Positions 6,901 to 9,900 of a stretch of DNA of 64,000 nt are shown piece by piece. The DNA lies in contig JARFYF010000012.1 in the NCBI GenBank assembly GCA_030265395.1, forward strand, positions 26,372,669 to 26,436,668. The letters are read 5' to 3'. Below the pieces are notes generated by a model. That model was not told where the DNA came from. It ran no database searches and saw nothing but the letters and a program-made list of their open reading frames with translations. Source of the DNA: Rhina ancylostomus (lineage: Eukaryota). Every line of letters starts with the position of its first letter. Within the stretch, counting starts at the first letter, position 1. The position numbers and the translations under genes were made by a program.

Positions 6901-9900
6901 CACAGTTAGAGGAGCATAGATATCTCTGTGGATCATAGTACAGGAAGAGTTTACATAAATAAGGAGGGATGAGATCATAGAGGGCTTTGAAAATAAAGAT
7001 GTTTAAATCATGGCAATACATGAACATAGAGTGTGAGGGACAGCAAGCACAAACGTGACAGGTGAACGTTTGGAAGTTAAGATATGGCAGTAGAGTTTGG
7101 ATGTTCTGAAATTCATACAGTATTAACAAAACAAGAATGCACTGGGAAAACCAAGGCTGGAGACTCCAAAGATGTGGATGAGGATTTCAACAGCAGATGA
7201 TCTAAGACATGTCAGGTGATGTTGCAGAGGTGAGAATGTCTTGGAGTTGGCATAGATAACAGATCCTAAGTTCACTTTTTTAGTTCTTGTTTCTGTGGTT
7301 TGCAGTAAGGCCTGCTGATTAGCTAATTGGATAATTAGGCAGCAACTGCTAATAAAAAGAAGTTAGGGTCAAGTGGAGTGGCTATTGTGTGAGTGGTCAG
7401 TGTTAGAGTGGGGAGCTGAGGCTGTGGCTAAAGAGGCTTCGGCATAAAGAGGTGGAGTAGGTGAGTGGAGGCCTCTTCTGGTAGGTTCTTTGTTATTTAT
7501 TATTTTCTTTGTATAGAAGAGTGGGAATGGCAGTCAGGGCAGAAGTCTGCTCCTCCTGTAGGATGTGGGAAGTCGGGGAGACCTCCAGTGTCCCTGAGGA
7601 CTACACCTGTAGGAAGTGCGTCCAGCTGCAGCTCCTTACAGGCCACGTTAGGGAGCTGGAGCTGCAGCTGGATGAACTCTGGGTCATTCGGGAAGTTGAG
7701 GAGATGATAGATAGGAGTTACCAGGAGGTAGTTATATCTAGGGTGCAGGATGTAGGTNNNNNNNNNNNNNNNNNNNNNNNNNNNNNNNNNNNNNNNNNNN
7801 NNNNNNNNNNNNNNNNNNNNNNNNNNNNNNNNNNNNNNNNNNNNNNNNNNNNNNNNNACGGTCCATTGACTCACTTGGCTAAAACCTACCCTGATTGCTT
7901 TGGAAAGTTGCCCATTTAACTGCTTCCAAATTGATGTCTTGCTATTTCACAGGGTTTCAGTAACTTCTGGGAAAAACAAATAGTCATAACAGAGAAAGAT
8001 GCTTCTTTTAACCCTTTAGTTACATCCAGCCATTTGGTAGCCGTTGCAACAGGGAAATCATTGATTACTATTAATAAAATGATCCCTTTTAGGACCAGTT
8101 TTGAGCCTACACCCACATTAAGGAGCTCAAGGCATAGCTTGTCAAATTTCTCTGGAGTAAGATTGTTCAAAATTTTTCATCTTACCACAGAGCTACTAAA
8201 AAGCAATAGGATAGATAAGTCCCTGGGATCGGATAGGATATACTCCAGGCTACTAAGGGAAACAAGGGAAGAGGTTGCTGGAGCATTAACAATCATCTTT
8301 GAGTCCTGCCTGGCCACAAGAGTGGTATCAGAATATTAGAGGATACCAAATGTTGTTCCATTGTTCAAAAAAGGTAAAAGGGATAATCCTGGGAATTAAA
8401 GACCAGTTAGTCTTACATCAGTGGTGGGCAAGCTATTGGAGAGGATTCTTAGGGACAATATTTATGAGCATTTAGAGATGCAAAGTCTTATAAGGGATAG
8501 TCAACATGGCTTTTTGAAGGGCAGGTTGTGCCTCACGACCCTAATAGAGTTCTTCAAGGAAGTGACAAGACAGGTTGATGAAGGTAGTGCTGTGGATGTG
8601 GTACATATGGATTTTAGCAAGGCATTTTACAAGGTTTCATGTGGTAGGCTCATTCTGAAGGTCATGAGGTATGGGATCCATGGAAAATTAACTATGTGGA
8701 TTTGTAATTGGCTTGCCCACAGAAGGCAGAGGGTTGTTGTAGAAGGGGAGTATTCGACCTGGAGGTCTGTGACTTGTGGTGCTCTGCAGGGATCTGTTCT
8801 GGAACCCCTGCTGTTTGTGATTTTTATAAATAACTTGGATGAAGAAGTGGAAGGGTGGGTTGGTAAGTTTGCAGATGACACAAAGATTGGTGGAGTAGTA
8901 GATAGCGCAGAAGTTTGTCATAGGCTGCAACGGGATATGACAGGATGAAGAACTGGACAGAGAAGTGGCAGATGGAGTTCAATCCGGAGAAGTGTGAAGT
9001 GATACACTTTGAAAGATCTAACTTGAAGGCAGAGTACATGGTTAATGACAGGATTCTTAGCAGTGTGGAGGAACAGAGACATCTTAGGGTTCTAGTTCAT
9101 AGATTCCTCAAAGATGCCGCGCAAGTTGATAGGGTGCTTAAGAAGGCATATAGTGTGCTGGCCTTCATCAGCCAGGGGATTGCGTTCAAGAGCAGAGAGG
9201 TAATGTTACAGCTCTATAAGATCCTGGTTAGACCACATCTGGAATATTGTGTTCATTTCTGGTTGTCACATTATAGGAAGGATGTGGAAGCTTTGGAGAG
9301 GGTGCAGAGGAGATTTACAAGGATGCTGCCTGGATTGGAGAGCATGTCTTTTGAGGAGAGGCTGAACAAATTAGGGCTTTTTTCCTTGGAGAGATGAGGG
9401 ATGAGAGGAGACTTGATAGATGTATATAAGATTATGAGAGGCATAGAGAGAGTGGACAACCAGCATCTTTTCGCCAGGGTGTCAATGGCTAATACTAGAG
9501 GTCACCCACTTAGGGAATGTGGAGGAAAGTTCAGAGGGGATGTCAGAGGCAGTTTTTTTACACAGAGAGAGGTGGGTGCCTGGAATGCACTGCCGGGAGT
9601 GGTGGTGGGGGCTGATATGATGGGGTCATTTAAAAGACTCTTCGACAGGCACATGGATGAAAGAAAAATAGAGGGTTACATGAGGTGAAGTAGAGAAGGG
9701 GATAGATAGAATGTGGATAAGGTTATATAAGTTGGCACAACATTGTGGGCTGAAGGGCCCATACTGTGCTGTACTGTTCTATGTTCTACCTTCATCTCAG
9801 GATCAAACATGACCAAGGTTATGAACAATCTGGTTTCACATTGGCAAGGACTTAGCTTGAGGAAGTGGCTCAGGAACAGGGAAGCATTTTTAACCCAACA

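Follow-up and report, generated by a model that had tools for sequence, protein, structure and literature searches.

An internal piece of eIF4G2 (DAP5) coding sequence, about 110 nt long, decayed and likely made from spliced mRNA, lies antisense and head-to-head to the 5' end of a truncated CR1 retrotransposon in the window, i.e. the whole stretch of 64,000 nt analysed here. As a tentative leading explanation, one event would account for both parts: eIF4G2 mRNA would have been reverse-transcribed onto the other DNA end of the cut while the CR1 was being inserted. Mechanistically the piece resembles an antisense mRNA/LINE chimera or a repair patch; because no target-site duplication (TSD) enclosing both parts was found, it is not filed as a chimeric insertion and is classed as a short eIF4G2 pseudogene fragment that touches a CR1. 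It probably has no function, being a relic of a type for which human LINE-1 has provided earlier examples. The features of the locus are the following.

754-900, plus strand: upstream host exon, with AG before and GT after; spliceable, coiled-coil
7310-7757, plus strand: CR1 5' UTR and start of ORF1 (ATG at 7527, CxxC...CxxC, then a leucine-rich stretch); 5' limit approximate
7758-7857: gap of 100 N, whose true size is not given by the N count; ends without overlap
7858-8065: 208 nt at the start of a contig, with no significant match in the searches made
8066-8173, minus strand: decayed eIF4G2 (DAP5) coding fragment, start of MIF4G; the ILNK...IILL exon plus I-V, with two amino-acid changes
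8174-8189, plus strand: 16-nt linker, consisting of the left TSD-like copy and ~5-7 nt before the CR1 homology
8190-9788, plus strand: 5'-truncated CR1, with ORF2 from about residue 425 (reverse transcriptase, RVT_1 E 5.5e-18), 3' UTR and tail
9789-9799, plus strand: right TSD-like copy (9791-9797 exact), beginning 2 nt after the CR1 tail
17164-17295, plus strand: downstream host exon; spliceable, coiled-coil
4220-4975, 12993-13479, 19581-20322, 24780-25054, 29771-29826, 53227-53578, 56375-56644, 57048-57688 and 61716-62404: further CR1-like pieces

The sequence-only reading of this DNA had taken positions 8066-8173 of the minus strand for a near-identical copy of the start of the eIF4G2 MIF4G domain, and the comparison with homologues bears this out: 34 of the 36 encoded amino acids are identical to those of eIF4G2 from Callorhinchus, Latimeria, Polypterus and Amia (tblastn E ~1e-13), and 32 of 37 to PDB 4IUL (E 1.1e-13). 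The sequence at the start of MIF4G is specific to eIF4G2, the comparison of the fragment with eIF4G1 giving only E 0.6. The homologue counts given here refer to the best 120 of 401 protein matches. Position 4 of the fragment is N, where all 120 have K, and position 23 is G, which none of the 120 has (D in 114, E in five, N in one). An in-frame stop lies two codons upstream of the fragment, and the acceptor that should precede it is absent, the adjoining sequence containing 40% pyrimidines as assembled, compared with 75% and 80% at two host acceptors; the right flank of the CR1, taken as the alternative upstream neighbour of the exon, has 55%. A six-frame search of the window with an eIF4G2 profile for which 60 of the 106 long matches were used found no other eIF4G2 segment (next best score 2.9 bits), so that the further exons expected of a real nested gene are lacking from the sequenced part of the window. 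A functional exon was rejected on account of the missing acceptor, the altered conserved residues and the lack of neighbouring exons in the window, and the earlier view that the LNK to LNN and VGS changes mark a non-functional copy is upheld by the homologues and by the absent acceptor; by these signs the fragment reads as a dead copy. The minus frame that stays open past the eIF4G2 match (49 codons) is unremarkable (6.7%). One of these best 120 of 401, the Tupaia eIF4G2 entry P0010, departs from the remaining 119 with LLIVIVDK and VLNK and is possibly a pseudogene or a prediction error.

The limits of the exon can be read from gene calls among the homologues that run through introns, which place an acceptor directly before ILNK and a GT donor directly after IILL. 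After LL, 109 of the 120 best matches continue with IVDK, ten with V and one with IVIV, and the seven inspected homologues with V at this point are read-throughs into the intron. The matched span is one eIF4G2 exon plus two codons, close to the one exon given in the sequence-only reading: the window continues after LL with ATA GTA (I-V), the opening codons of the next eIF4G2 exon, a continuation expected by chance with a probability of 0.003-0.005. Because I-V carries the similarity across the exon junction, a spliced-mRNA source is weakly favoured, on 6 nt only; since these 6 nt are overlapped by a donor-like word, GTAATC, which starts 3 nt after LL, an unspliced copy with a small insertion would also be possible. 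A pseudogene derived from a circular RNA was rejected because LL is followed by I-V-I-N and not by the start of the exon. The V-R codons upstream of the fragment resemble the end of the previous exon; a shift of one codon and their overlap with the repeat described below led to their being given zero weight.

The adjoining element was described in the sequence-only reading as a CR1 ORF2 on the plus strand, devoid of its endonuclease and about 16 nt from the eIF4G2 piece, and it proves to be just that. In the clearest references, of ~915 residues, the alignment sets in around residue 423-428, which leaves out the endonuclease (residues 8-208 in reference protein P0125); the frame contains three stops and one frameshift, and the tail consists of two TGTTCTA units, ending at 9788. 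Of the 11 references aligned, from a set of 35 full-length proteins, seven place the start at 8187-8217 and four earlier, and because the references are only ~50% identical and the alignment starts vary, the start is accurate to ~10 nt. A CR1-type reverse transcriptase (RT), a short-repeat 3' tail and a short TSD-like repeat were found, the assignment to the CR1 clade resting on similarity to APE-RT proteins and on the tail, without a tree. The element is a common kind of 5'-truncated copy with nothing unusual about it. The host piece adjoins its 5' end across the 16-nt linker, with eIF4G2 on the minus strand and CR1 on the plus strand.

The nine further CR1-like pieces in the window lie on both strands and are 60-82% identical to 8190-9788 where aligned. 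Two open frames on the minus strand (32483-32713 and 18291-19315) resemble the reverse transcriptases of other non-LTR retrotransposons, which we take to be Rex1/L2-like and RTE-like, respectively. The plus frame at 7935-8339 stays open over the insert (85 codons) and carries on into the RT frame of the CR1 as far as a stop at 8337; a frame this long occurs in 1.2% of random segments of the window and is probably due to chance, the antisense strand of coding DNA being often poor in stops.

The linker holds a heptamer, TTCATCT (8176-8182), that recurs exactly at 9791-9797, on the far side of the CR1; over the longer comparison of 8174-8184 with 9789-9799, 8 of 11 bases agree. Randomising one flank under a position rule reproduced such a repeat in 125 and 132 of 20 000 trials, and without the rule in 147 of 5000 (overall range 0.006-0.03), the rule and the null having been framed post hoc, when the match had already been seen. 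The repeat looks like the TSD of the CR1, enclosing this element alone, with the eIF4G2 piece falling outside the duplicated stretch. The search for a repeat enclosing both the eIF4G2 piece and the CR1 yielded no left copy in 7858-8173 or 6900-7530, and the only exact match of at least 7 nt between the right flank and 7858-8200 is the one inside the linker; a second left copy may be concealed in the gap at 7758-7857. The other CR1 copies in the window, considered as a control, are too old or too short for their TSDs to be judged. In the available part of a study of zebrafish LINEs (PMC4245944), TSDs of CR1-1_DR measure 1-8 bp, and the extra 5' bases of ZfL2-2 are often derived from the flank; such bases occur in ~40% of genomic ZfL2-2 copies according to the available part of PMC2666801.

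The 208 nt to the left of the eIF4G2 piece had been said to match neither CR1 nor the next eIF4G2 residues, and this remains so: 7858-8065 has no significant match in the rest of the window, and as a candidate for the next eIF4G2 exon (VTKGLKE against VDKALEE) it was rejected, 430 of 2000 random segments scoring as high. There is no Rfam match in 7858-8065 (five sub-threshold hits lie elsewhere in 6500-10500) and no plasmid or phage match. For the longest minus frame (7919-8068), the search of longer proteins gave three candidates, none with E of 10 or below, no homologue of near length was found, and Atlas scores were at most 0.78; the other frames were compared with the eIF4G2 profile and the next exon only. 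The promoter and terminator scan of the site found none, a scan of this type being unsuited to vertebrate DNA. No mRNA 3' end, poly(A), LINE tail or separate TSD of the eIF4G2 piece is found in 7858-8065. By default the stretch is considered native intron; it may instead be eIF4G2 intron or a second captured piece. On the minus strand, it includes an acceptor-like pyrimidine run ending in CAG (approximately 7963-7975) and a donor-like GTGAGT (approximately 7866-7874), and the ~90 nt between the latter and the acceptor-like run encode nothing similar to eIF4G2.

Beyond the gap at 7758-7857, which may hide the body of an upstream CR1 as well as the far end of any captured piece, positions 7310-7757 resemble by eye the 5' ends of published elasmobranch CR1 consensus sequences (first 400 characters in the supplement of PMC13343379). 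Within these first 400 characters, a 14-nt motif from this piece appears only in the PriPec_CR1-4 row. The ORF1 piece has no Pfam match, Atlas scores of at most 0.86 and no counterpart among 150 RT-containing proteins. Because no repeat joins the flank left of 7310 to the flank right of 9788, this piece is probably a separate, second CR1 copy whose body lies in the gap.

All of the junctions discussed here are in a 2.3-kb contig (7858-10146) bounded by a 100-N gap on each side, and its placement within the intron therefore rests on scaffolding. The window contains 20 gaps in 64 kb, leaving 61.6 kb sequenced. The right gap has a 6-nt overlap of its ends, like three others of the 13 gaps of 100 N, and the left gap has none, so that the overlap supports the right-hand join only. 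Altogether, six of the 13 (at 10147, 16652, 34690, 42467, 14683 and 51027) have overlapping ends, four of them exact (6-9 nt) and two near-identical (52-75 nt), and many 100-N gaps probably conceal no sequence.

The location inside a JAKMIP3 intron, as proposed in the sequence-only reading, stands insofar as spliceable exons, which we take to be JAKMIP, flank the site, with JAKMIP_CC3 matches in later exons (26409-26660 and 33488-33724); the choice of JAKMIP3 over JAKMIP1 or 2 is presumptive. If the scaffold is right, JAKMIP pre-mRNA would contain ~108 nt antisense to eIF4G2. Because this stretch is intronic, short and decaying, a regulatory role is unlikely.

The single-event explanation can be laid out as a series of steps. 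The CR1 endonuclease would have nicked the bottom strand at ~8173/8174, and the CR1 RNA would have been copied until synthesis stopped within ORF2; the cDNA end would then have been joined to a short target overhang and a few extra bases, giving rise to the linker. The other DNA end (~8065) would have primed within an abundant mRNA, that of eIF4G2, a little beyond an exon junction, and copying towards the 5' end of that mRNA would have left the piece antisense and head-to-head with the CR1. End joining would have sealed the two parts, and the eIF4G2 piece would have drifted since, with no likely function. One event is preferred because only 0-2 nt separate the end of the eIF4G2 piece from the left edge of the repeat, the expected place of the first nick, and at the CR1 density of the window an independent element would land this near with a chance of ~0.14% (within 3 nt) or 0.65% (within 16 nt); it also fits because two-ended priming yields precisely the head-to-head antisense geometry. 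Since no repeat encloses both parts, the single-event model has to invoke either a further break or copying of the linker, and it leaves unexplained, as a coincidence, that both ends of the piece lie near exon borders. The finding that 5' inversions arose mostly with human L1 and not with the zebrafish LINEs tested, as given in the available part of PMC4245944, also counts against it. The rough divergences of the eIF4G2 fragment (2.7%, range 0.3-9.7) and the CR1 (6%, range 1-19) overlap and cannot separate one event from two. The capture during CR1 integration proposed in the sequence-only reading survives as the tentative leading reading, except for the template switch, which in its plain form is unlikely: template switching, ligation and trans-splicing all predict the same orientation of the two parts, and eIF4G2 is on the minus and CR1 on the plus strand. 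That a CR1 reverse transcriptase, commonly held to require its own 3' tail for initiation, started on cellular mRNA at the other end of the cut DNA, with the resulting antisense host-mRNA/CR1 chimera fixed in the germline of a cartilaginous fish, is a somewhat more tentative proposition still.

Two separate events, in which an eIF4G2 RNA piece arrived as a repair patch or a truncated retrocopy and the CR1 landed alongside later, or in the reverse order, are rather doubtful when taken alone and nearly as likely as the single event. They would explain why the repeat, at 7-11 bp comparable in size to the CR1-1_DR TSDs, surrounds only the CR1; CR1-group elements make up 22-34% of elasmobranch genomes in the available part of PMC13343379, 10 CR1 pieces occur in this window, and retrocopies abound in cartilaginous fishes (14,081 counted; bioRxiv 2026.06.26.734816). 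Two events, however, would have had to meet at the same few nucleotides by the coincidence quantified above, and neither a poly(A) nor a separate TSD can be seen at the eIF4G2 piece. It is improbable that the piece belongs to a more extensive stretch of eIF4G2, copied from genomic DNA or pre-mRNA and split by the CR1, with the following intron at 7858-8062 and possibly the preceding one from 9789 onward. Such a copy would account for a protein similarity that covers almost exactly one exon and for the GTAATC word 3 nt after LL, and the right-hand repeat copy restores AG-G before the first codon in the natural phase; the donor, however, is displaced by 3 nt, the pyrimidine content upstream is well below that of the host acceptors both as assembled and in the right flank, the right flank lacks the previous exon, 783 of 1000 random segments scoring equally, and no other exon is found in the window.

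The remaining possibilities are less probable still. An assembly chimera is suggested by the location of the junctions, 210-330 nt from the end of a short gap-bounded contig in a fragmented assembly; it is quite unlikely, given that a misjoin would not recreate a heptamer that lies 1.6 kb off, beyond the CR1, and that sequence taken from the working gene would neither have both substitutions nor miss its acceptor. Of 37 sequence words, the five sequencing runs listed each contained a share of 0.05-0.08, none as much as half, and no RNA run was among them; shares this small count neither for nor against the junction. The repeat, in this respect, argues that the contig is real DNA; a wrong scaffold position of the contig is a risk separate from that of a misjoin. 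A CR1 subfamily that carries the antisense eIF4G2 piece and has multiplied it many times, one of the options raised in the sequence-only reading, finds some encouragement in the plus frame that is open through the insert into the RT, and is rendered very improbable by the TSD-like repeat that separates the two parts and by the absence of the piece from all nine other CR1-like pieces in the window, of which only the one at 19581-20322 reaches that part of ORF2. The chances are equally slim that 7858-8189 is a patch replacing the lost middle of a single full-length CR1 with its 5' end at ~7310: the 5' and 3' pieces are co-oriented and do not overlap, but no repeat links the outer flanks and the 3' piece has its own. 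The least probable of all, to the point of being hardly credible, is a working eIF4G2 gene nested on the minus strand, which would agree with the high identity and could extend into the unsequenced gaps nearby, against the stop two codons upstream, the absent acceptor, the two changes at near-invariant sites and the lack of any other exon in the sequenced part of the window.

As it stands, the locus is one dead fragment. Should the two parts have arrived together, an element of the CR1 clade would be capable of writing host mRNA into the genome without a shared 3' tail, which would bear on the formation of retrocopies in CR1-dominated lineages; several LINEs have been described as requiring their own 3' end (PMC3747384), and retrocopies have been linked to CR1 or Tx1 content (VGP preprint, bioRxiv 2026.06.26.734816). 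If the leading explanation is true, two-ended priming on foreign RNA would be a property of the CR1 clade as well as of L1, and a census of its scars should be feasible in shark and ray genomes. No earlier report of an antisense mRNA/CR1 chimera was found in the open-licence literature searched.

The closest parallels come from human L1. In the accessible part of Law and Burns (bioRxiv 10.1101/2025.02.02.635956), 15 of 17 human mRNA/L1 chimeras are sense, and two are antisense, lack the first exon and are assigned to twin priming; there, template switching, ligation and trans-splicing are held to produce same-strand chimeras and twin priming those on opposite strands. These antisense chimeras and the present case share an internal mRNA piece without the first exon, placed head-to-head at the 5' end of a LINE; in the human cases, as far as this part of the text goes, a TSD surrounds both parts and co-arrival is established by alignment of multiple genomes, whereas here the repeat surrounds the LINE only and the element is a CR1, not an L1. 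In human cells, according to the available portion of bioRxiv 10.1101/2024.12.14.628481, EIF4G2 mRNA served as template for extending the reciprocal end of an L1 cut. Here, too, eIF4G2 would have been copied onto the second DNA end; the human cut was made by ORF2p and had a 5-bp TSD, but that event was somatic, L1-driven and part of a translocation, in contrast to the germline insertion considered here. The non-classical L1 insertions, as presented in the available part of PMC1920257, combine L1 with foreign DNA of at most 312 bp, which in one instance derives from a fragment of mRNA; they are human and devoid of TSDs, whereas the CR1 here seems to have one. Class 2 templated sequence insertions (Onozawa and Aplan, the available part of PMC5110952) are likewise short patches from a distant locus without poly(A), 73-414 bp in experiments; they are human and defined by the empty site, whereas the piece described here is known from the filled site alone. 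A processed pseudogene (retrocopy) has in common with this piece the decayed coding copy and possibly, if the two codons I-V are taken as the start of the next exon, the passage across an exon junction; the piece differs in that it is only ~110 nt long, comes from the interior of the mRNA and shows neither a 3' UTR nor a poly(A) nor a separate TSD. Finally, the elasmobranch CR1 elements with a type IV ORF1, in the parts of PMC13343379 and PMC4120745 available, are similar by eye to the 5' UTR and ORF1 start upstream of the gap, and the RT domain and short-repeat tail that they possess are also present here.
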